From: Alphaproteobacteria bacterium
GTDB taxonomy: Bacteria > Pseudomonadota > Alphaproteobacteria > SP197
DNA: 64,000 bases
Reading direction: 5' to 3'
Assembly: GCA_964291265.2 (NCBI GenBank)
Contig: OZ219747.1
Coordinates: 3,232,001 to 3,296,000 of the forward strand
Below the pieces are notes generated by a model. That model saw only the letters and a program-made list of their open reading frames with translations. It searched no databases and had not been told where the DNA came from. Every line of letters begins with the position of its first letter. Positions within the stretch are counted from its first letter, which is position 1. This document shows, piece after piece, positions 8,483-20,294 of the stretch. Position numbers and translations under genes: made by a program.

Positions 8483-10195
8483 TCAAACGGGAAAATCGAT
8501 ACGCCATGCGACCGCGGCGCTCGTTGCCATGGCCTCCTGGCGCGCCTCGATCGTCTGCGGCGTCCACTCGGCGTACTGGCTCGCGATGTCCCGGGTCGTC
8601 CGGAAACGGCTATTCGCGAACACTGTCCGTTTGGCTTCGTAGTCGGCATTGCCGGCGTTGCGATTCGAGCCCTCTTCCAGCAACGCCATGTTGCCGAGGC
8701 GCGATGTCTGAGCCTCCAGTTCTCCTTCGCCGAACCGGTCCCAGCCGTCTCCAGGGTTCAGCGGACAGATATGCTCCAAGGTTGTCCGGCTGTCCTCGAA
8801 GTCCAGGCGATTGCCGGATGCCTGCCGCTCCAGTTCGAACAGGATGTAGCGGACAACCCGCTTGTTTCGCGTCTGCGCAACGCCGATGGACTTCTCGCCA
8901 AAACTCAGCCGGAACCGTTCGTCGTCGGGATAGACCGGCCGCAGGCTGCCCATGACTTGGCGGATCGAGGAATGCTCGCCTCGCGTAATCCTCTGGGCTT
9001 CCGCATGGTAGACCCGCTCCTGCTCGCTTCCGTGAAGACCGCCGACGACATTGTAGCGCAAGGAGATGATCACGACCGAGCGCAGCAGCTTCTCGAAGTC
9101 CGCATCGCCCAGAGAACGCCGCGCAGCCAGCAGCAGGGGAAACGGCTGGCGGACGCTGAACATGCGAAGGGTCCGGACATGCTGCTTCCATTCGACAGGC
9201 CAGTCTGAGCCGTCCGGCTGCGTCAACGCCAGATAAGCCTCGATATCGGTTTCGAGTTCCTGCAGGAGCGAAAACGCATCCCTCCTGTTCCGGACTTTGG
9301 CGCGGACGCTCTTGAAAAGGTCCGACAACCGGACGGTTGCTCTCCGGCTTATCCAGTGGACACGCAGAAAGTCCGGAAAGCTCTCCTCCCCGAGCCTTCC
9401 TACGATGCCGTTCCAGCGTCCTTCCAGCGTCTCGATCTCACGCTCGTGCTCGCCCTGGCGATGCAGGAGCGAGAACAGGTAGTTCTTCAGGAGGTCGGTC
9501 GCCGAGAGCCGCACGCCCCGCGCATTCAGCGTTTCGAACACCCGGTAGGCGTTCAATTCGTCGGTGACCGTGATGACGGTGAAGAGCAGCTTGTCGCTCA
9601 TTCCGTCGATCAGCCGAACCACCGCCAGGCCAGGGTCCTCCTCTTCCTCCAGATAGTCCCGAAATCGGCGGTCGAACCACTCGAACGCCTTGCGCATGTC
9701 GTGTTCCGACTTTCTGAATCCCCGTCTCGGCAAGGGCGAGGTCAGCGGAACCAGATATGTCTGGAAATAGTGGTCATTGTTCCGGTTCAGCTTCAGCTTG
9801 GGTTCCGAAACAAGGGTCACCGGATCGAGGTATCCGATATAGGCTTGGCGCAGGCTTTCGAGCCTCTTGCGGGTGTTCTCGGTATCCCGCCCCTGGTCGA
9901 GCAGGACGTTCAATTGCCGCAGGGCGGCCAGCACGAGAATGCTGAGCGTTGTCAGGCGCTGTTGTCCGTCGATGATGTCGAACCGCTTGCCGTCCTCCGA
10001 CTGCAGGACGAGATAGCCCATGTAGTGCGCCGGCTCCCCCTCTGGACGCATGAGCTCGCGAATATCCTGCCAGAGGTCGTCCCACTCCTCCTCGCCCCAG
10101 CTGTAGTCGCGCTGGAACGGCGGCACCCGGTAGAGCAGGCCGTTGCCCATCAACTGGCGCCAGGTGCTGTTGCTGGTATTGAAATTCGTAGCCAT
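8483..10195 (-). CDS. DUF262 + DUF1524(HNH) protein, GmrSD/SspE-like type IV restriction nuclease
   Basis: VPPFQRDYSW, IIDGQQRLTT and FETLNARG (DUF262); TLEHICP...RLGNMALL...N (DUF1524 HNH). Confidence 0.9.
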   Translation of the reverse strand: MATNFNTSNSTWRQLMGNGLLYRVPPFQRDYSWGEEEWDDLWQDIRELMRPEGEPAHYMGYLVLQSEDGKRFDIIDGQQRLTTLSILVLAALRQLNVLLDQGRDTENTRKRLESLRQAYIGYLDPVTLVSEPKLKLNRNNDHYFQTYLVPLTSPLPRRGFRKSEHDMRKAFEWFDRRFRDYLEEEEDPGLAVVRLIDGMSDKLLFTVITVTDELNAYRVFETLNARGVRLSATDLLKNYLFSLLHRQGEHEREIETLEGRWNGIVGRLGEESFPDFLRVHWISRRATVRLSDLFKSVRAKVRNRRDAFSLLQELETDIEAYLALTQPDGSDWPVEWKQHVRTLRMFSVRQPFPLLLAARRSLGDADFEKLLRSVVIISLRYNVVGGLHGSEQERVYHAEAQRITRGEHSSIRQVMGSLRPVYPDDERFRLSFGEKSIGVAQTRNKRVVRYILFELERQASGNRLDFEDSRTTLEHICPLNPGDGWDRFGEGELEAQTSRLGNMALLEEGSNRNAGNADYEAKRTVFANSRFRTTRDIASQYAEWTPQTIEARQEAMATSAAVAWRIDFPV

Positions 10196-10300
10196 TCGCG
10201 TGCCGACTCGCCGAAAGGGCCGCCTTGGTTCGCGGCTCGGAATTCGAGTTGCAGATACCTGCTCGCCCCTGTTGATCATTGATCGTCTTTTCTGACGGCG

Positions 10301-11161: not shown

Positions 11162-11460
11162 AAATCATCATTGCCCACAAATACCGTCTGGCTAGCTGAT
11201 GTGTTGCCGCACGGCGCTGTCGTCCCCGGCATCGACACTGTAACCAAGCATCCACGCCGTGAACGACAGCGCAGCCTGGCCGTTCCAGGTGATCTCCGCG
11301 CCGGTCGGGCCGTCCTTGCTGCGGTTCAGGTATCCGCCCATCGTCGCCACGAGGCGGAATGCCGCTGAGAGATCTTCGGGCGGCGGCAGCTTGCGGACAT
11401 GCGCGAAGTCTTTCAGCAGCGCCAGTTCGATGTCGGTGAATGCGGTCCTTGCCGGAAGCT
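11162..11460 (-). pseudogene. IS4-family (IS50/Tn5-like) transposase, C-terminal fragment and element end
   Basis: Manual translation LPARTAFTDIELALLKDFAHVRKLPPPEDLSAAFRLVATMGGYLNRSKDGPTGAEITWNG..., stop at 11192-11194, then the end-like TCATCATTGCCCACAA. It joins 16808+ in frame once the IS21 insert is removed. Confidence 0.85.
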
Positions 11461-11834
11461 TGTCGGCGGCGATTTAGAACGGCGGGATATTGGCGGAGAA
11501 CCGCTCTTTTGGGCGCTGATCGTGTGAGTGGGTGACCACGACAGGAGAACGTGCGGCATTGGACGAAGGTCCGCCCGGTCTTTGTTTTCTGCCTATTGTT
11601 GGATCCCATTGGTCTTGCATTGACGTTGACGATGTCGTTCCGGTCGGCGTTTTCTGGCGTTCGGCGTTTGTGGAACGTGATGTGGGAGGGGAGCTTCAGG
11701 CTTTTGCGCGTGGTTTCGTTCTGGCGTTCTCCGTCCTCGTCGTGGTTCGTCGGGCGGGACGATCTCGAGGCTGGAGAGCTGACGGTTTCTGTTGCGCTGG
11801 GCGAAGAGGCTGCGTGCGTTGCGGTTGCGGCGGC

Positions 11835-12580
11835 GCAGGGTGCGGCAGGCGTCGAGTGTTTTCGGGCGGATGCTGCGACCTGTGAGCCAGTCCGGCGGCG
11901 GATCGGGCGTTGCTGCGGCTCAGCGGCTGCGGCAGTCTCGTGATGTGGTGTCGTTTGGACGGCCCGGGGGTTTCCCGGGGAGGCTGAGAGGCGCGTCGGG
12001 GTGAGACGTTCTCATTCCTGGATGGTAACGCGTGACCGCGTTCAAGGGTCTTGCGAGATTACGTGTCCCTTCCGTAGCCGCGTGGCGGTTCGATGTCCTC
12101 GAGAGCCTCGATGTCGGCATCGGCGACGATCTGCAGGCGTTCTCCGTAAGGCGTGTCACGGAGGGTTTCGGGGATGCTGTCGAGGCGGTCACGCCATTCG
12201 TCCTGCAGGGTGCGGCAGGCGTTGAGTGTTTTCGGGCGGATGCTGCGACCTGTGAGCCAGTCCGGCGGCGGATCGGGCGTCGCTGCGGCTCAGAGGCTGC
12301 GGCAGTCTCGTGATGCGGTGTCGTTTGGACGGCCCGGGTGTTTCCCGGGGAGGCTGAGCGGCGCGTCGGGGTGAGACGTTCTCATTCCTGGATGGTAACG
12401 CGTGACCGCGTTCAAGGGTCTTGCGGGATCACGTATCCCTTCCGTAGCCGCGTGGCGGTTCGATGTCCTCGAGGGCCTCGATGTCGGCATCGGCGACGCT
12501 CTGCAGGCGTTCTCCGTAAGGCGTGTCACGGAGGCTTTCGGGGATGCTGTCGAGGTGGTCACGCCATTCGTCCTGCAGGG
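11835..12580. repeat. 370-bp tandem duplication inside the IS21 element (degenerate Toprim fragment plus 3' half of the small ORF)
   Basis: 11835-12204 and 12205-12574 are near-identical, with GCAGGG microhomology at the junctions. 11620-11830 is a further degenerate copy of the Toprim 3' end. Confidence 0.9.
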
Positions 12581-12719
12581 AGCGCAGTTCGGCCACGGCG
12601 TCGTTCCAGCGTTGCGGTCGCGAGCGCCGGTCACGGTGCTTTGGGGTGTGGACGGGAGGGATGCCGGCCTTGCGCCGTTCCCGGTATCGCCGCTGCTTTT
12701 CGGCGGGCGTGAGGGGCAT
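12429..12719 (-). CDS. Small (96 aa) helical hypothetical passenger protein
   Basis: AGGAGA RBS, then MPLTPAEKQRRYRERRK...RSRPQRWNDAVAEL...IEPPRGYGRDT. Degenerate homologs lie at ~12060-12205 and 63607-63889. Confidence 0.8.
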   Translation of the reverse strand: MPLTPAEKQRRYRERRKAGIPPVHTPKHRDRRSRPQRWNDAVAELRSLQDEWRDHLDSIPESLRDTPYGERLQSVADADIEALEDIEPPRGYGRDT

Positions 12720-12745
12720 GAGTGGTCTCCTTGTGACGGACGTGG

Positions 12746-13639
12746 TCATGATCTCGCTTGTGGTTCTTTGGTCCTGGCGTTGACGACGTCGTTCCAGTCG
12801 GCGTTTTCCGGCGGTCTGCGTCTGTGGAACGAGACGTGGGAGGGGAGCTTCATCTTTTTGCGCAGGGTTTCGGCCTGTCGCTCTCCGGCCTCGTCGTGGT
12901 CCTGGGCGAGGACGATGGTCCTGACGTTGAGCAGGCTGCTTGCGGCGAGGCTGATCTGTTCGTGCTGTCTTCGCGAGGGTGCCCCGGCGGTGGAGAGGAA
13001 GGCGTGGCTGGGGGGACATTGGTCGATCTGGGCCAGGCTGAGGGCGTCGACGGCGCTTTCGGTGATGACGAGGGCCTCGAGGTCCGCGGCGGTTCCGGCG
13101 CGGACGGCGAACAGGCTTCGGGTTCCACCGGTGGCGAAGCGTTTCGGTCCGTCGGGGGGACCGATCTCGAAGCCGGTGAGCTTTCGCTTCCTGTTGCGAT
13201 GGGCGAAGAGGACGCGTCCGTTGTGGTCGCGGCGGACCAGGGGGCGGCAGGTGTCGAGGGTCTCCGGGAGGATGCCGCGCCCGGTGAGCCAGTCCGGGGC
13301 CGCATCGGGCGTTGCCGCGGCCCAGAGGCTGCGGAAGTCGCGTGGCGCGGCGTCGGGTGCTGCGAAGCGGGTGCAGATGTCGGCGAAGGCCAGTCCGCGG
13401 TTGAGCATGAAGTCGATGACGGTTCCGTTGTCTTCATCGTTCTGGGTGTTGAAGTAGACTCAGTGTCCGTTGTTGAGGCACTTCGTGACGAGCTTCGGCA
13501 GGCCGGGTGCGCACAGGACGGGGTTGGCGCGTGTCGAGGCCTGTTCGTCGCGGACGTATCCCCAGTCGGCGGCGATGCGTTCGAACGGCATGCGCTTGAC
13601 GGCGTCGAAGTCGACGCGGCGGGGTTTATCGGGTTTCAC
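12746..13639 (-). pseudogene. DUF3991/Toprim primase-like protein with one in-frame TGA
   Basis: GTG start overlaps the istB end. Sequence GH*VYFNTQNDEDNGTVIDF (probably a Trp codon mutated, 13460-13462), then ITESAVDALS, LSTAG, LAQDHDEAG and DWND Toprim motifs, all in one frame. Confidence 0.82.
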
Positions 13640-14327
13640 GCCTGAGCCGCCAGGAGTCGCTGTCGATGGAGATGAGGGTTGCGTCGTGCATGAGCCGGTC
13701 GACGGTGCCGGCGATGCCGGAGGCGCTGGGGAAGACGCGGTCCCACTGGGCGAAGGCGAGGCTTGTCGTGACCATGGTCGAGCGGCGCTGATAGCGCCGC
13801 GAGACGATGGCGTAGAGGATGTCGGCATGGTGGCTTTCGAGGGTCACGTAGCCGATTTCGTCGAGGACGAGCAGGCGGGGCCTGGCGAGGATCGCGAGGC
13901 GGCGGCGCAGCTCGCTGCGCGAGACGGTCTCGGCGAGTGCCTCGAGCAGTTCCGGCGCCTTCTCGAAGCGGACGGTGTGGCCGTGCAGCAGGGCCTGGTG
14001 CGCCACGTTGGCGGCGATCATGGTCTTTCCGGTGCCCTGCCCGCCGACGAGCACGGCGTTGTCCGCACGGTCGACGAAGCCGAGGCCGAAGAGCGCTTCG
14101 ACATGAGCCCGGCTGATGTCGCGCGGCCATGTCCAGTCGAAGTCCGCCAGGGGCTTGAAGGCGGGCAGCCGCGCCGCGGCGCGGCGGCGCTCGTGGCTGC
14201 GGGCCCTGCGGGCCTGTTCCTCGCCGCTGACCACCTCCTCGATCCATGCGGTCCCGGCGACCTCGTCCCAGCGTTCGACGAGCCCGTGGAGGCCGAGCGC
14301 CCGGGCACGCTCCCTGAGCTCGCTCAT
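13626..14327 (-). CDS. istB: IS21 transposition helper ATPase IstB
   Basis: FDWTWP, Walker A GGQGTGKT, LLVLDEIGY, TTSLAFAQW and VDRLMH. ATGA overlap with istA. Confidence 0.95.
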   Translation of the reverse strand: MSELRERARALGLHGLVERWDEVAGTAWIEEVVSGEEQARRARSHERRRAAARLPAFKPLADFDWTWPRDISRAHVEALFGLGFVDRADNAVLVGGQGTGKTMIAANVAHQALLHGHTVRFEKAPELLEALAETVSRSELRRRLAILARPRLLVLDEIGYVTLESHHADILYAIVSRRYQRRSTMVTTSLAFAQWDRVFPSASGIAGTVDRLMHDATLISIDSDSWRLRRETR

Positions 14328-15817
14328 GTCTTGTTCCTGGCGCTGGCTTCGGGCCTGTCGTAGGCGTCGAGAGCGGTCCCCCGCGGCGTCGTGCCACGGC
14401 CGCCGCGGCCGTCGTCGGCGATGCTGAGGGGCGGCAGGCCCTGCTCCCGGCGGCGCTCCTCGATGATGACGCGCACGGTTTCGGGGTGGCACGAGCCGCG
14501 CTCCAGCGCCGTGGCGACAGCCCGGTCGAGAGCGTCGGCGCCGTGCGCGTTGAGAAGCGTCTCCAGCATCCGGGCGCAGGAGGCCACGTTGCGCCCGTTG
14601 GTCCCGGCGCGCGCCAGCATCTCCTCGGCCCGCGGCACGGTGCGCAGGACCCGGTCGCGGACGCTCATGGAGCGGGCCCGCCGCTTGCCCGCGGCGATCG
14701 CCCTGGCATGCTCCGGATCGGTGACGGCCTGCTTCCTGTCGTAGGAGCGTCGGTGGCGCGCGACCTCGTCGGCGCCGTCGAGGATGCGAACCTCGTCGCG
14801 GTCGGCGACCAGCGTCAGCAGGGCCTTGGAGAAGCTACCCGGAACGCTGTAGTCGTTGGTGTCGAAGCGGGCGTGGCAGGTCTTGTCGATGCGCACCGGG
14901 CGGACCTCGTGATGCGGGAAGGGGTCGACGGGAAGGACGATCAGGTGCTCCCTCTCCCGGGCGAAGGCGTCCCGCACCAGGAGACTGTCGTCGTCCGGCC
15001 AGGGCCGCTCCGCGGCGGCGCCGAAGCACCACTCCCGAACTGCGGCGTTGAGCTCGCCGAGCGGGACCGTGATGTCGCGCCCGGCGAAGAACCCGGTGCG
15101 CGCGAAGCGCACACGGCGTTCCACGCGGCCCTTCTCCTGCGGGCTCCTGGGCCAGGCGGCGCTCGGTTCGAAGGCATAGTGGGCCGCGAGGCCGAGCAGC
15201 ATCGGATGATAGGTGACCGCCTTGCCGCGGCGCGTCACCACGGCACTCTTCAGGTTGTCGTACAGAAGCCTCCGCGGCACACCCCCGAATGCCGCGAAAG
15301 CCTCGACATGGCCTTGCAGGAAGCTGGCCATCCGCGCGTCGTGGAACAGGCTCAGGACAGTCTGGCGCGAGTAGCTGAGGGTGACGAGAAGCCCCATGAG
15401 CCTGCGCTCCGCCCGGCCAATGCGGACCTTCCCGAACTCGGCCCAGTCAACCTGCGCCTGCTCGCCCGGAAGGAAGCTCAGCCGCAGCGACGGCTCGGGC
15501 CTCTTCACCGGCCTCAGCCCAAGGCGGCGCAGGTCGTGACGGAAGTGATCCTCGCCGCCGCGGTAGCCCAGAGCCACGACCTGTCGCCAGAGCGTGCTGG
15601 CCGGAAGGTCCGGCGACGCCTCAAGACGCTCCCCGAGGAAGGCAACGAAGGGGTCGATGAGCTTGGCCCGCGGCCGCCGCTCCTGCCCCGACGCCTTGAG
15701 CGCCCGCGTCACCGTGCCGTGGTGCACGCCGAGATGCCGGGCAATCGTCCCCACAGCCCAGCCCTCGGCCCGCGACAGCCGCACGATCGTCGCCCGCGTG
15801 TCCTCGTCGATCGCCAT
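14324..15817 (-). CDS. istA: IS21 transposase IstA
   Basis: N-terminal HTH; PGEQAQVDW, LYDNLKS, KGRVER DDE motifs; FDTNDYSVP. Confidence 0.95.
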   Translation of the reverse strand: MAIDEDTRATIVRLSRAEGWAVGTIARHLGVHHGTVTRALKASGQERRPRAKLIDPFVAFLGERLEASPDLPASTLWRQVVALGYRGGEDHFRHDLRRLGLRPVKRPEPSLRLSFLPGEQAQVDWAEFGKVRIGRAERRLMGLLVTLSYSRQTVLSLFHDARMASFLQGHVEAFAAFGGVPRRLLYDNLKSAVVTRRGKAVTYHPMLLGLAAHYAFEPSAAWPRSPQEKGRVERRVRFARTGFFAGRDITVPLGELNAAVREWCFGAAAERPWPDDDSLLVRDAFAREREHLIVLPVDPFPHHEVRPVRIDKTCHARFDTNDYSVPGSFSKALLTLVADRDEVRILDGADEVARHRRSYDRKQAVTDPEHARAIAAGKRRARSMSVRDRVLRTVPRAEEMLARAGTNGRNVASCARMLETLLNAHGADALDRAVATALERGSCHPETVRVIIEERRREQGLPPLSIADDGRGGRGTTPRGTALDAYDRPEASARNKT

Positions 15818-15849
15818 GAACTCCCTCCCTTTGGTTCCTCAACGCCGCA

Positions 15850-16326
15850 TCACAGGTCCCTCAGCACCACATGCGTCACGACCCGTCCGCACCGGGCGCA
15901 CCGAAGCGGCGATTCGCGTCGCTCTTGCGCCTTCACAACCGCAGGTAGGGAGGTCGGCAGCAGTCGGGAAGGGTGGTCCGTAACGATTTCTTCGGAACCG
16001 GCGTCTCCAGACACCGCCGGAACGTCGCCAAGCAGCACCACAGCAGACGTCTGCGTGTCCATGATCTCGGCAACCATCGCCGCCCTGGCCTTCAACGCAC
16101 GCGCCTCCTCCGCCTTGCGGAGCCGGTAACGCCGCTGGCGGTGACGGCCCGTCTCACGGCCCTTCAGCGTGCTCTGGTAGCGACGACGCGACGCGCGGCG
16201 CCGCTCGATCCGGGACCGCTCCCTGCACTCCTTGGAGCAATACACATGCCCCCGGTCACACGACCGGCAGAGAACAACCTGCCGCTGACACCGCCTGCAG
16301 TTGAACAGTCGTCCCGTCGTGCACAC
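15850..16326 (-). CDS. Cys-rich Zn-finger hypothetical protein upstream of istA
   Basis: LFNCRRCQRQVVLCRSCDRGHVYCSKEC, an Arg-rich helix and a C-terminal RCARCG. The start is uncertain (16326 or 16380). Confidence 0.7.
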   Translation of the reverse strand: MCTTGRLFNCRRCQRQVVLCRSCDRGHVYCSKECRERSRIERRRASRRRYQSTLKGRETGRHRQRRYRLRKAEEARALKARAAMVAEIMDTQTSAVVLLGDVPAVSGDAGSEEIVTDHPSRLLPTSLPAVVKAQERRESPLRCARCGRVVTHVVLRDL

Positions 16327-16807
16327 GATCCGTCTCGAGAGCGGGGGTGGACCCGGACGCAAAATGGCTCGACAATACACGGGAGTTCGGTCCCCCGTGA
16401 CCGGCTCGTCCGGGTGCTGCGCCGGGGGGCGTCACAACTCCGCCCGGCATCGCATCGCTCTTTCTCTTGATGCCGATCTAGCATCCACCCGGGGCGGCGG
16501 CAAAGACGCCGCCCCGGGACCGGACAACGCGACCCGCCCACAGGGAAGACAAACAATCCCGCGAGTGCCTCGGAACCGGAACCCTCCCGGCAACCGTCAC
16601 CAAAACCGAAGCAGAGGTCGACGGAACAACCCGAACCGGACCAAAACGACAATAGGAAAAGACGGCGGCGCTCGGGGAGACAACCAGCCGAACACTCAAA
16701 CCACGACAACAGGACGTGACAATAGGACCTGACAACAGGGAAGAAACACGACCCTGACAAAGCGCGGCAAATCGCCGAAATCCCGCCGTTCTATGCAGCC
16801 ATCAACA

Positions 16808-17395
16808 AAGCTCCGGTTCCGTTCGCGCCAGGTGGGTGAGAGCGGCGATGCGCCAGGCAATCACCGCGTTGATGGCCACGGCCCGTTCGATGCGTCCCCC
16901 GGTACGATGCGCGATCGTCTCCACCTTGCAGCCCGACTTGAGGATCCTGTGCCAGTCCTCGATCCACCACCTCAACCCGTAGAGCCGCACCACCTCGCGG
17001 GCCTGGTGCAGGCTCGTGACAGGCAGGGTCGTGAGCAGGGTCCACGACACCGGTTGTGACCCGTCGTCGGGCCTGTCCACCTCCCCGGCATGGATCGCGG
17101 TCAGCACCACCGGCTCCGCTCCGAAGCGCGCCCTTGTGTGTGCAGGCGGCGGGATCTCGAGTGTCAGTCAGCGCAGGCTCACCTGCGCCTGGCGCCTCGC
17201 TCGCCCGACGGAGGCCTTCTGCGCCCCTGTCGAACGTCGCCCCGACAATCGCTCCACCGTGAGGGAGAACTGTCCGCCTTCCGGCGCCGTGCGCACACGC
17301 TCGAACAGCTTGGGCCGGCCGCGGCCGAAGCTGCGGTCATGGCGCGCCCGCACCAGCAGCGCCAGACGGCGGCAGCCCGCCGCACGGTGCTCGTG
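16808..17395 (-). pseudogene. IS4-family transposase, central fragment (5'-truncated, internal stop)
   Basis: LLVRARHDR...WTLLTTLPV...YGLRWWIEDWHRILKSGCKVE (IS4 YREK motif). TGA at 17168-17170. Confidence 0.88.
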
Positions 17396-17770: not shown

Positions 17771-19789
17771 TCAGGGCCGGGTCAGGGCGTTGATGGCCTC
17801 GCGACGGTCCAGTTGTAGGCGGCGCCGGGTTTCGGCGAGGCTTTCGGCCTCGCGGCGGTTGGCGAAGATCACCGCGAGCGCGATGTTGTTGAGGCTGGCC
17901 CGGTTCGCCGGGCCGTTGTCGGTGCGGGTCAGGCAGGCGTCTTCGCCGAAGACGCAATCCCTTTGTCGATGGTTCAGATTTTCCACGGCCCAGTGGCGGC
18001 GGTTCAGTCGCAGCAACTCTTCCGGCGACGTGGCCCCCGTATCGAGAGAGGTGATGATGTAATCGGTTTCCGTGTAATCCTTCTCTTCTTGCTTCCCGGC
18101 ATCGCCGGAGCCTTTCTTCCCGGCATCGCCGGGGCCTTTCTTCCCGGCATCGCCGGGGCCTTTCTTCCCGGCATCGCCGGGGCCTTTCTTCCCGGCATCG
18201 CCGGAGCCTTCCTTCCCGGCATCGCCGGAGCCTTCCTTCCCGGCATCGCCGGGGCCTTCCTTCCCGGCATCGCCGGAGCCTTCCTTCCCGGCATCGCCGG
18301 AGCCTTTCTTCCACGGCTCCCGATAGCGGGTGATGCGGGCGACCTGACGGACGCCCGGATAGTTGATCAGACCGTCCAACGGGACGAGGACGCTGATCGA
18401 ACGCTGCTCCAGTCGACCGTGCGCCTTGTCGAACGGCTCCGTGAAGTGGCCGGTAGCGTCTTTTTGCCAATTGATGCTGTCGAGGATGGCGAAGGTCTCC
18501 GGAGCGTTGCCCTTGACGACGAAGACGTAATCCGCGCGTTGTGTGATCAGCTTCGCGGTATGGCGTGTCGTGTGCAGCGCGTCGAGGGTGATCACCTTGC
18601 CGCCGATGTCGCTGCGCTCCAGGAGATCGTGCATGGCCGCCAGTTCGCCGCCTTCGTCGTTGAAGTTCAGGAGGGAAAAGGGCGCGCCGGTCTCATGGTC
18701 GACAAGGGCCACGGTCTCGTGACGGCCATCGCCGTTGCGGTTGGCGCCGCGGATGCGCTTGCCGTCGGCGGCGAGTGCACGGGCGAGGTGAAGCCGAGGC
18801 CGGGACCAGCGGGTGAGCACATCCTCCAGAGCCTCGGGGTCGATCGACTGGATAACCCGGTGGATGGTGGACTTGGAGACGGGCTCGCGAAGCCCCGTCT
18901 TCGGGTTAAGCCAGGCGCCGATGGCCTCCAACTCCTCCTGGGACAGGGACCGCGCGAACTGCGCGGCGGCGACACAGCCCTTCATGTTGGCGAACTCGGC
19001 GAGCACGTGCACGGTGAGCACCGATGCCGCGGTATGCTTCCTTCCCTGCGCCCGGCGGAAGTCGGGAATGGCCGCGAGCTCGGCGTAGAGCGAGCGCAGC
19101 ACCTTGGGGTCCCGGGGCGCCAGTTCGGGGCATGAGGGCGGCGCCACGTCGGGGGGAAGCGGCAGTGGGCTCGACAGCAGCGCCCGGGCATCGCGCCTCA
19201 GTGCCGTAACGTAGATATCCTTGGGCTTGCCGTGAGGATCGGTGTAACGCCCGTTGGAGCGGGCAAACCCCTTGGTCTCACCCAGACACGTCCAGCCCGC
19301 AGCCTTCAACATCGTGCCGGCAAAGATCTCCGGATCGCAGAACGTCTCCGCCAGCAACACCCCGTGGCCGTGCACCTGCAGCCAATCGTCACAGAGCCGG
19401 CGCGTCATGCACGCAAGGAAACAGGAAGCAAGGTTCGCAAACACCCCGGGCTTGGAGAGGATCAAGAACCGCGTGTTGTTGGCTACCATCGAGAGCCGCT
19501 GGAACTGCTGCTCCGGCTTCCAGCCGGTCCACTGGTCGCGGGGAGCGCACTTGAAGGCGCCGTTCTGCCACGCCGCCAGCCCCAGCCAATGGCCCCTGAA
19601 GGTCGCAAGGTAGCGCAGACCGCGACCCGCCAGGCGACGGAAGCCGAGATAGTGGTGCTTGTTCATCAGCGCGTCCCACAGCGGACGCTCCTCCGGCCTC
19701 GCCAGGCGAACATCGACCTCAGACAGGGAAAAACCCTCAGGTGCTTCCTGATGGATCGGGACAGCTTCCATGAGCTTGCGAATCGACAT
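17771..19789 (-). CDS. DUF4338(DruA-like)-ISAs1 transposase fusion
   Basis: N-terminal HHYLG...CAPRDQWTGW...NNTRFLIL...NLAS...LAETFCDP (DUF4338). C-terminal IPDFRRAQG, AADGKRIRG, ITLDALHT, KAHGRLEQR and HWAVEN...FGED (ISAs1). Start codon approximate. Confidence 0.9.
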   Translation of the reverse strand: MSIRKLMEAVPIHQEAPEGFSLSEVDVRLARPEERPLWDALMNKHHYLGFRRLAGRGLRYLATFRGHWLGLAAWQNGAFKCAPRDQWTGWKPEQQFQRLSMVANNTRFLILSKPGVFANLASCFLACMTRRLCDDWLQVHGHGVLLAETFCDPEIFAGTMLKAAGWTCLGETKGFARSNGRYTDPHGKPKDIYVTALRRDARALLSSPLPLPPDVAPPSCPELAPRDPKVLRSLYAELAAIPDFRRAQGRKHTAASVLTVHVLAEFANMKGCVAAAQFARSLSQEELEAIGAWLNPKTGLREPVSKSTIHRVIQSIDPEALEDVLTRWSRPRLHLARALAADGKRIRGANRNGDGRHETVALVDHETGAPFSLLNFNDEGGELAAMHDLLERSDIGGKVITLDALHTTRHTAKLITQRADYVFVVKGNAPETFAILDSINWQKDATGHFTEPFDKAHGRLEQRSISVLVPLDGLINYPGVRQVARITRYREPWKKGSGDAGKEGSGDAGKEGPGDAGKEGSGDAGKEGSGDAGKKGPGDAGKKGPGDAGKKGPGDAGKKGSGDAGKQEEKDYTETDYIITSLDTGATSPEELLRLNRRHWAVENLNHRQRDCVFGEDACLTRTDNGPANRASLNNIALAVIFANRREAESLAETRRRLQLDRREAINALTRP
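18092..18312. repeat. 24-bp VNTR x9 encoding (K/E)G(S/P)GDAGK inside the transposase
   Basis: CTTCCCGGCATCGCCGG(A/G)GCCTT(T/C) repeated 9 times, in frame. Confidence 0.97.
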
Positions 19790-20294
19790 GACCGGACCGT
19801 CGCACATCCCAAGCGGGATGGCCAGCGGAAAATGTCCGCGCGCGTGCAACATACGAACGCCTGACGTCAAGTGAAATCAAGCGAATTCCAGCGTGGGAAG
19901 GCCTTGAGTTCTCGGGTACGGTTCGATATGTCGGCGACGGTGATATCCTCTGTGTGGGTCAGACGGCCGACCCGGATCATTGGATCGAAGTTCGGACCGC
20001 GGACTTCGATGCCCTGGAACTTCACAAGCCGGGTGGTGAAGCGGCCAAGGCAGCACTTGTTCGATTGGCCCTTGGCCAGCCTGTCGCTTGCACCACAGCA
20101 CGAGGTCGAAGTGGCCGTGTCGTTTCCTTCGACCGGGTGATCGTCCGCTACCGTATCGGCTCCACGAGCATCGGAGACCTGCTCCGTCGGGCTGGCGTTG
20201 CCGAAGGTGGGAACTGACGACCGCCGACCGAGTAGGGAGCCAGTTCGACGGTCGGTCGGAGCCTCGCTCATGGCACAGGCGGGCAGCGCCAGAT

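Follow-up and report, generated by a model that had tools for sequence, protein, structure and literature searches.

Canonical members of the IS21 family of insertion sequences (IS) measure about 2-2.6 kb, and target duplications in the family range from about 4 to 8 bp. The accessible parts of three accounts of the family describe IstA and IstB only (PMC12486865, PMC10122671, PMC11208146); the last of them gives a 5-bp target duplication for IS21, presents IstB as a paralogue of DnaC/DnaI and states that the family is proposed to move by copy-out/paste-in. [quoted passage not shown] Our analysis of a 64,000-nucleotide stretch of an alphaproteobacterial genome (contig OZ219747.1, positions 3,232,001 to 3,296,000; hereafter the window) revealed a 5,347-bp element (11461-16807, starting with TGTCGG and finishing with CAACA), which shares with IS21 and IS5376 a DDE transposase scoring above the NCBIfam cut-off, an IstB-type AAA+ ATPase, overlapping istA and istB genes, TG...CA ends and mostly 5-bp duplications. 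By its transposase, helper ATPase, ends and target duplication the element is a member of the IS21 family, but it departs from the two-gene form: it is 5.3 kb long, with relatives of 4.0-4.7 kb, and holds within its ends a conserved Cys-rich gene upstream and a primase-like gene downstream. We read it as a recently expanded four-gene IS21 element whose Toprim protein, a predicted primase of the DnaG/T7 type, would prime DNA synthesis in a replicative step of transposition, and we give this reading a probability of about one half.

The insertion site shows that the 5,347-bp unit moves whole. The exact empty site, with position 11455 joined to 16808, is present in contigs of all three public runs, which come from one study, and excision of the element together with one copy of AAGCT rejoins the frame of the transposase gene that it interrupts. 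This gene has a weak DDE_Tnp_1 match (the label "IS4" comes from the original prediction only), and the element to which it belongs occurs in three uninterrupted copies elsewhere in the genome. A 14-bp core is common to both ends of the IS21 element, within imperfect inverted repeats of ~49 bp. The boundaries, imperfect repeats, AAGCT duplication and restored frame proposed in the original prediction were all borne out, and so was the gene order on the minus strand, Cys-rich open reading frame (ORF) - istA - istB - DUF3991/Toprim - 96-aa ORF, with overlaps of ATGA between istA and istB and of 14 nt between istB and the Toprim gene (Table 1). The single nonsense codon that had been noticed in the Toprim gene is likewise present (codon 60, 13460-13462) and is private to the window copy, a sense codon being read at this place in all three public runs.

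The genome, 4.83 Mb in size, contains 30 full copies of the element, 97.7-99.5% identical to the window copy, as well as nested and partial ones. Target duplications border 26 of the 30 copies (21 of 5 bp, four of 6 bp and one of 7 bp). No copy has a broken Cys-rich ORF, istA or istB, whereas the Toprim gene is intact in 29 and the 96-aa ORF in 27; the catalytic residues of the Toprim protein, which keeps its acidic triad and DxD motif, are intact in 29 copies. The copies are strongly mosaic: they fall into 22 haplotypes, and the four-gamete test fails for 1,916 of 4,005 site pairs, a sign of recombination or gene conversion between copies. Altogether the element accounts for about 160 kb, or 3% of the host genome. 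Its left flank is multicopy DNA in 20 of the 30 copies as compared with 138 of 600 random positions, an excess that may reflect either targeting or the purging of harmful insertions, and no target consensus is evident among the insertion sites. By its frequent landing in other repeated DNA the element also shapes this genome.

Conservation was surveyed in the best 80 of at least 546 IstA-related loci, to which the following counts refer. The Cys-rich ORF stands upstream of istA in 77 of the 80 and istB downstream of it in 73, across many phyla, so that the Cys-rich ORF, regarded at the outset as cargo, is instead a hallmark of a much wider subfamily. A Toprim gene directly follows istB at 26 loci in nine genomes and is of two types, type A being 73-74% identical to that of the window (12 loci, two genomes) and type B 26-31% identical (14 loci, seven genomes); three further genomes of the same genus carry type A at 60-64% identity. 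In the labels used here G000 is the genome of the window, G0xx are the genomes of relatives and L0xx the loci examined. The Toprim gene is enclosed by element ends and target duplications at L005-L015 (4,654 bp), L016-L018 (4,141 bp) and L020-L025 (4,049 bp), in G004 (~4,045 bp) and G009 (~4,466 bp), and at L004 (~4.1 kb, with a 7-bp duplication). The order Cys-rich ORF, istA, istB, Toprim lies within the ends at L004, at L005-L015, in G004 and in G009. These four genes form the conserved unit, found within ends in five genomes. They do not include the 96-aa ORF, because it is present in only two of the five type-A elements (none was seen downstream of the Toprim gene at L004 or in G004 and G009) and its family lies beside other mobile genes; a conserved five-gene module, as first proposed, is hence ruled out. 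The other part of that proposal, an IS21 subgroup, stands, the observations that would have refuted it not having been made: the Toprim gene is intact in 29 of the 30 copies, sits within inverted repeats and duplications in four other genomes and is selected like IstA, and these findings rule out a pseudogene or a one-off capture.

The structure and residue numbering of the Toprim protein are those of an intact natural copy (P0001). Its AlphaFold model has a predicted local distance difference test score (pLDDT) of 91.6. The top Foldseek matches of the model were the N-terminal region of Twinkle, the zinc-binding and RNA-polymerase domains (ZBD and RPD) of Aquifex DnaG, the T7 gp4 primase and E. 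coli DnaG, and a profile search of PDB sequences returned T7 primase (E=1e-8); on these grounds we predict a primase of the DnaG/T7 type. Of 49 close homologues, 47 retain E192, 44 D245, 45 D247 and 42 D279. All five acidic sites are kept, with N allowed at position 196, in 41 of the 43 homologues that cover them fully and strictly in 24, and in type A the acidic residues persist to ~51% identity. Ratios of nonsynonymous to synonymous substitution (dN/dS), obtained by simple pairwise counting with no GC correction, are 0.34-0.37 for Toprim, 0.34-0.40 for IstA and 0.30-0.37 for IstB in the three closest pairs, where synonymous divergence is similar. By these values the Toprim gene is under purifying selection comparable to that on IstA, and its branching order broadly agrees with that of IstAB.

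The two Toprim types of IS21 elements differ in descent. In our tree type A groups with plasmid-type DUF3991-Toprim proteins and type B with the Toprims of ExeA-type elements, and a single clade of the IS21 type A and type B proteins is rejected (approximately unbiased test, p-AU 0.0002); since the two lineages are not one clade, Toprims entered the place behind istB on more than one occasion. The IstAB trees, which hold 53 rows after removal of near-identical copies and short-match rows, split the backbones of the two types, a 32-row tree joins them at 95, and one backbone clade is not rejected (p-AU 0.30).

Two DDE-AAA transposon types of this genus, unrelated to the IS21 element, likewise have a Toprim as their last gene, within the element ends. 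An ExeA-type element of 4,006 bp with TG...CA ends in G005 (L114:1647-5652) consists of a Cys-rich ORF, a DDE gene, an ExeA-type AAA gene and Toprim B; about 15 near-identical Toprim matches belong to it, the ends and 5-bp duplications were checked on five loci, and similar elements were found in G002, G009, G010 and G013. The Toprims of the ExeA-type elements keep E and DxD. A third element, of 5,160 bp, is present in six copies in the window genome (G000:C2:47062-52221; L162) with ends other than TG/CA and 5-bp duplications in six of six, and its order is Cys-rich ORF, DDE, AAA, an AAA_25 helicase-like gene and Toprim B. Both the helicase-like protein and the window Toprim match phrog_239 (DNA primase/helicase, T7-type), and the AAA_25 and Toprim genes of this element resemble a split version of T7 gp4. 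The helicase-Toprim pair stands on both ExeA-type backbones in G010, and a few Toprim B matches are found with no clear backbone (L165-L168). Two copies of the 5,160-bp element are themselves interrupted by the window-type IS21.

The slot behind istB is modular. Some relatives carry in it a Toprim of the second lineage, and those with no Toprim gene have other occupants, among them a mini-protein with an SSB-like tail. The commonest of these occupants is a helical protein of 60-100 aa, which follows istB in 23 of the 53 tree rows, often with a 4-nt overlap, and ends in F in 21 of the 23 and in PF in 16 (e.g., FDDDIPF, LDDEIPF and FNDEIPF). A profile of this protein matched 1,483 clusters, with no Pfam model, and the consensus of its tail is F-D-F-D-D-D-(I/L/P)-P-F, while the SSB of the host itself terminates in DFDDGIPF. 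The PF ending occurs in 80 of the best 150 profile matches as compared with 7 of 8,011 background ORFs, although this count is inflated and partly circular, the tail having been included in the profile. Genes of the mini-protein stand after istB on plasmids of Aromatoleum (with the tail) and Mesorhizobium (with no tail), where they are annotated as hypothetical. Elsewhere in the 53-row tree the slot holds winged-helix-like proteins (two rows) or another helical family (three rows); the winged-helix proteins have weak initiator-like matches (HTH_36, E=0.015; phrog_19658, E=0.01). Besides the mini-protein, two unnamed slot families lie at L037:8241-8699 and L056:8326-8736 and at L033, L041, L054 and L074, one of them with weak winged-helix and replication-initiator matches. 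According to PMC5872125, DDDIPF, the tip of SSB, is a binding site for DnaG as well as for many other proteins of DNA metabolism.

A primase behind istB would fit the copy-out route as follows. A strand displaced during replication requires its own primer, and IS911 reportedly requires DnaG. In copy-out transposition replication turns the bridged intermediate into a circle, a step that the accessible part of one account credits to host machinery (PMC7780238), and the 3'-OH produced by cleavage primes the copy, as stated in the part seen of another (bioRxiv 10.1101/2023.06.07.543989). We propose that the 3'-OH left by IstA would prime one strand, and that the primase of the element, translated in step with IstB, would prime the displaced strand or restart the fork; in other members the SSB-like tail of the mini-protein may recruit host replication proteins to the same end. 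More tentatively, and with somewhat less confidence than in the priming role itself, DDE-AAA transposons may share an unrecognised replication-support slot behind the ATPase gene, filled with a primase, a primase and helicase, an initiator-like winged-helix protein or a mimic of the SSB tail, and would then be self-priming transposons that run copy-out with their own or recruited enzymes.

Several observations weigh against these proposals. Canonical IS21 moves with two genes only, and no recognised slot gene was found in 11 of the 53 tree rows; the partial circularity of the PF count belongs here as well. In the genome none of the 49 left-end and 42 right-end matches abutted each other, and the search for circle junctions suggested in the original prediction gave none in the contigs of the three runs, contigs being apt to lose rare molecules. 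The N-terminal domain of the Toprim protein has zero conserved Cys ligands and no zf-CHC2 match, though the fold matches span this region, and because the zinc ligands are missing we call the protein primase-like rather than DnaG; DnaG and T7 gp4 need that domain to prime de novo. Position 196 is D in 29 of the 49 homologues and N in 19. In seven deeper pairs dN/dS rises to 0.40-0.61 for Toprim as against 0.28-0.56 for IstA. The type-B Toprims on IS21 backbones have exchanged Glu for Lys and DxD for DxT and are kept nonetheless, so that catalysis is not needed in all carriers. Finally, carriers are rare: they comprise 8 of 32 other genomes of the family, all of the same genus, and Toprim matches were obtained in only 2 of 300 genomes of the class (seven candidates scored per genome), both on short contigs with no transposase match.

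Alternatively, the Toprim protein might be a transposition accessory working mainly without catalysis, which would bind or protect the single-stranded intermediate or recruit helicases of the host or of the element. The altered type-B proteins are under selection in seven genomes (dN/dS 0.25-0.67), zinc ligands are absent from the N-terminal domain, the alternative occupant of the slot looks like a pure recruiter, and the top fold match is the N-terminal region of human Twinkle, which is a non-priming relic. However, the acidic residues of type A are kept in 41 of 43 homologues, and in ExeA-type elements, where the gene has a helicase as its partner, E and DxD are retained. We consider the non-catalytic role unlikely, though the strongest of the competitors to priming.

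It seems less probable still that the element took up the Toprim gene from plasmids as a passenger, which is retained because it benefits the host or a plasmid in the same cell and plays no part in transposition. Its nearest relatives are indeed plasmid DUF3991-Toprim proteins, found in 446 plasmid records; the element captures other genes, e.g., the 96-aa ORF; and carriers are concentrated in a single genus plus some other genomes, so that the repeated finds could stem from a gene pool shared locally. Nevertheless, a gene of benefit to the host requires neither intactness in 29 of 30 copies nor co-divergence with IstAB at equal constraint, and three distinct backbones have the gene at the same place, right behind the ATPase gene or the ATPase and helicase genes. 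Conjugal mobilisation of an excised circle or its brief life as an episome, with the primase serving the second strand in the recipient or an internal origin, is very improbable: plasmid homologues adjoin relaxase and coupling-protein genes, a related element has a helicase-primase pair and two of 11 elements have tandem repeats of 13-14 bp close to their left end, but those repeats are absent from the other nine, no circles appear in the contigs of the three runs and none of the five ORFs of the element is a relaxase gene by Pfam, so that the mobilisability suggested at first finds no support.

Table 1. Features of the IS21-family element and, in the last row, of relatives (positions in the window, unless a locus is named)
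Feature	Position	Strand	Remarks
Target-site duplication AAGCT, 5 bp, right-end side	11456..11460	.	Empty site in 3/3 runs
Right terminal inverted repeat, ~49 bp, imperfect	11461..11509	-	TG terminus
Decayed debris: fragments of a second Toprim copy (81-83% identical) and a duplicated 3' half of the 96-aa gene	11621..12323	-	370-bp offset; in all 30 aligned copies
96-aa basic/helical ORF	12429..12719	-	Intact in 27/30 copies; family of >1,000 members
DUF3991/Toprim primase-like gene, 297 codons from GTG	12746..13639	-	Predicted DnaG/T7-type architecture, Zn-less N-terminal domain
istB, AAA+ helper ATPase, 233 aa	13626..14327	-	Pfam IstB_IS21 PF01695 E=7e-50; NCBIfam NF038214 191 bits, just below cut-off 200
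istA, DDE transposase, 497 aa	14324..15817	-	NCBIfam NF033546 222 bits, cut-off 160; motifs located; intact in 30/30 copies
Cys-rich ORF, putative zinc-binding, long basic helix	15850..16323	-	Start inferred from homologues; open frame to 16380
Left terminal inverted repeat, ~49 bp, imperfect	16759..16807	-	TG terminus
Target-site duplication AAGCT, 5 bp, left-end side	16808..16812	.	
Mini-protein after istB	L082:8389-8589, L019:8285-8491 and 21 more		

The 96-aa ORF and the debris at the right end (~0.7 kb) are passengers outside the conserved unit. A homologue of the 96-aa ORF (77%) is located at L002:2787-3080, and there are three more such places in G000; we take the gene ahead of the homologue to be an IS110-type transposase and the genes ahead of decayed copies to be recombinase-like. 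The family may serve many mobile elements as a common accessory. The Cys-rich ORF had no family match in Pfam, NCBIfam, PHROGs or Atlas; a fold search with its model (pLDDT 83.8) returned generic helices only, and no match to TniQ was obtained in Pfam, NCBIfam or the fold search.

At the ends of the element the 14-bp core, as a candidate for subterminal IstA-binding repeats, was matched once per end at up to 4 mismatches, a search that could miss degenerate repeats. Three 13-bp tandem repeats lie at 16704-16739, inside the left end; L004 has a 14-bp array at the same place, absent in nine other elements. An iteron origin near the left end was rejected as a candidate, tandem repeats exceeding shuffles in only 2 of 11 elements, and Rfam gave no match to a structured RNA in the element. 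Short fragments with the left end only, as well as one left end that has inserted 47 bp within a second one, were observed in G000 at C2:837508, 993796, 1866714, 3066894 and 3640823-3646150 and at C1:17461; they are possibly mini-elements or ends of composite transposons. Concerning a role in defence, PADLOC gave a generic DnaG-like match only. A metagenome scan with the Toprim protein gave 0 of 174 stretches. Among the neighbours of the element, 8483-10279 (minus strand), near the insertion, encodes a GmrSD-type restriction endonuclease with both Pfam domains, and 17771-19870 (minus strand) a 699-aa ISAs1-like transposase with an N-terminal DruA domain (PF14236); inside this protein lies a 10-aa tandem repeat, of which L001 has a different number of copies.

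A primase-like gene in an IS21 element offers a direct genetic handle on the replication step, and the fact that primase, helicase-primase and SSB-tail modules replace one another in a single slot points to the needs of that step. Compared with known systems, the Toprim gene has the same Pfam pair as the DUF3991-Toprim genes of plasmids and integrative and conjugative elements, with which type A groups at 26-38% identity to plasmid matches; unlike them, it is coupled to istB, has multiplied with the IS and has no relaxase or coupling protein nearby. With DnaG and T7 gp4, and with the N-terminal region of Twinkle, its modelled product shares a ZBD-like part, an RNA-polymerase/Toprim fold and the acidic motifs, whereas it is devoid of the conserved zinc ligands and, unlike DnaG and T7 gp4, of a helicase-binding or helicase domain. 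Mu and Tn7/Tn5053 (TniQ) combine a DDE transposase, an AAA+ ATPase and a zinc-type accessory, a set to which the window element corresponds through its putatively zinc-binding Cys-rich ORF; this ORF gave no TniQ match in Pfam or the fold search. Replicative members of these groups need fork restart, and Mu and Tn7/Tn5053 use host primosomes. The IS excision enhancer (IEE), as described in the accessible part of bioRxiv 10.1101/2023.06.07.543989, is likewise of a primase superfamily; it has a helicase part and acts on the intermediates of copy-out/paste-in IS, but it belongs to the archaeo-eukaryotic primase (AEP)/PrimPol type rather than Toprim, promotes excision and deletion, and is not presented there as a gene within an IS, in contrast to the primase-like gene of the window element, which lies inside the ends of the IS21 element and is coupled to istB.

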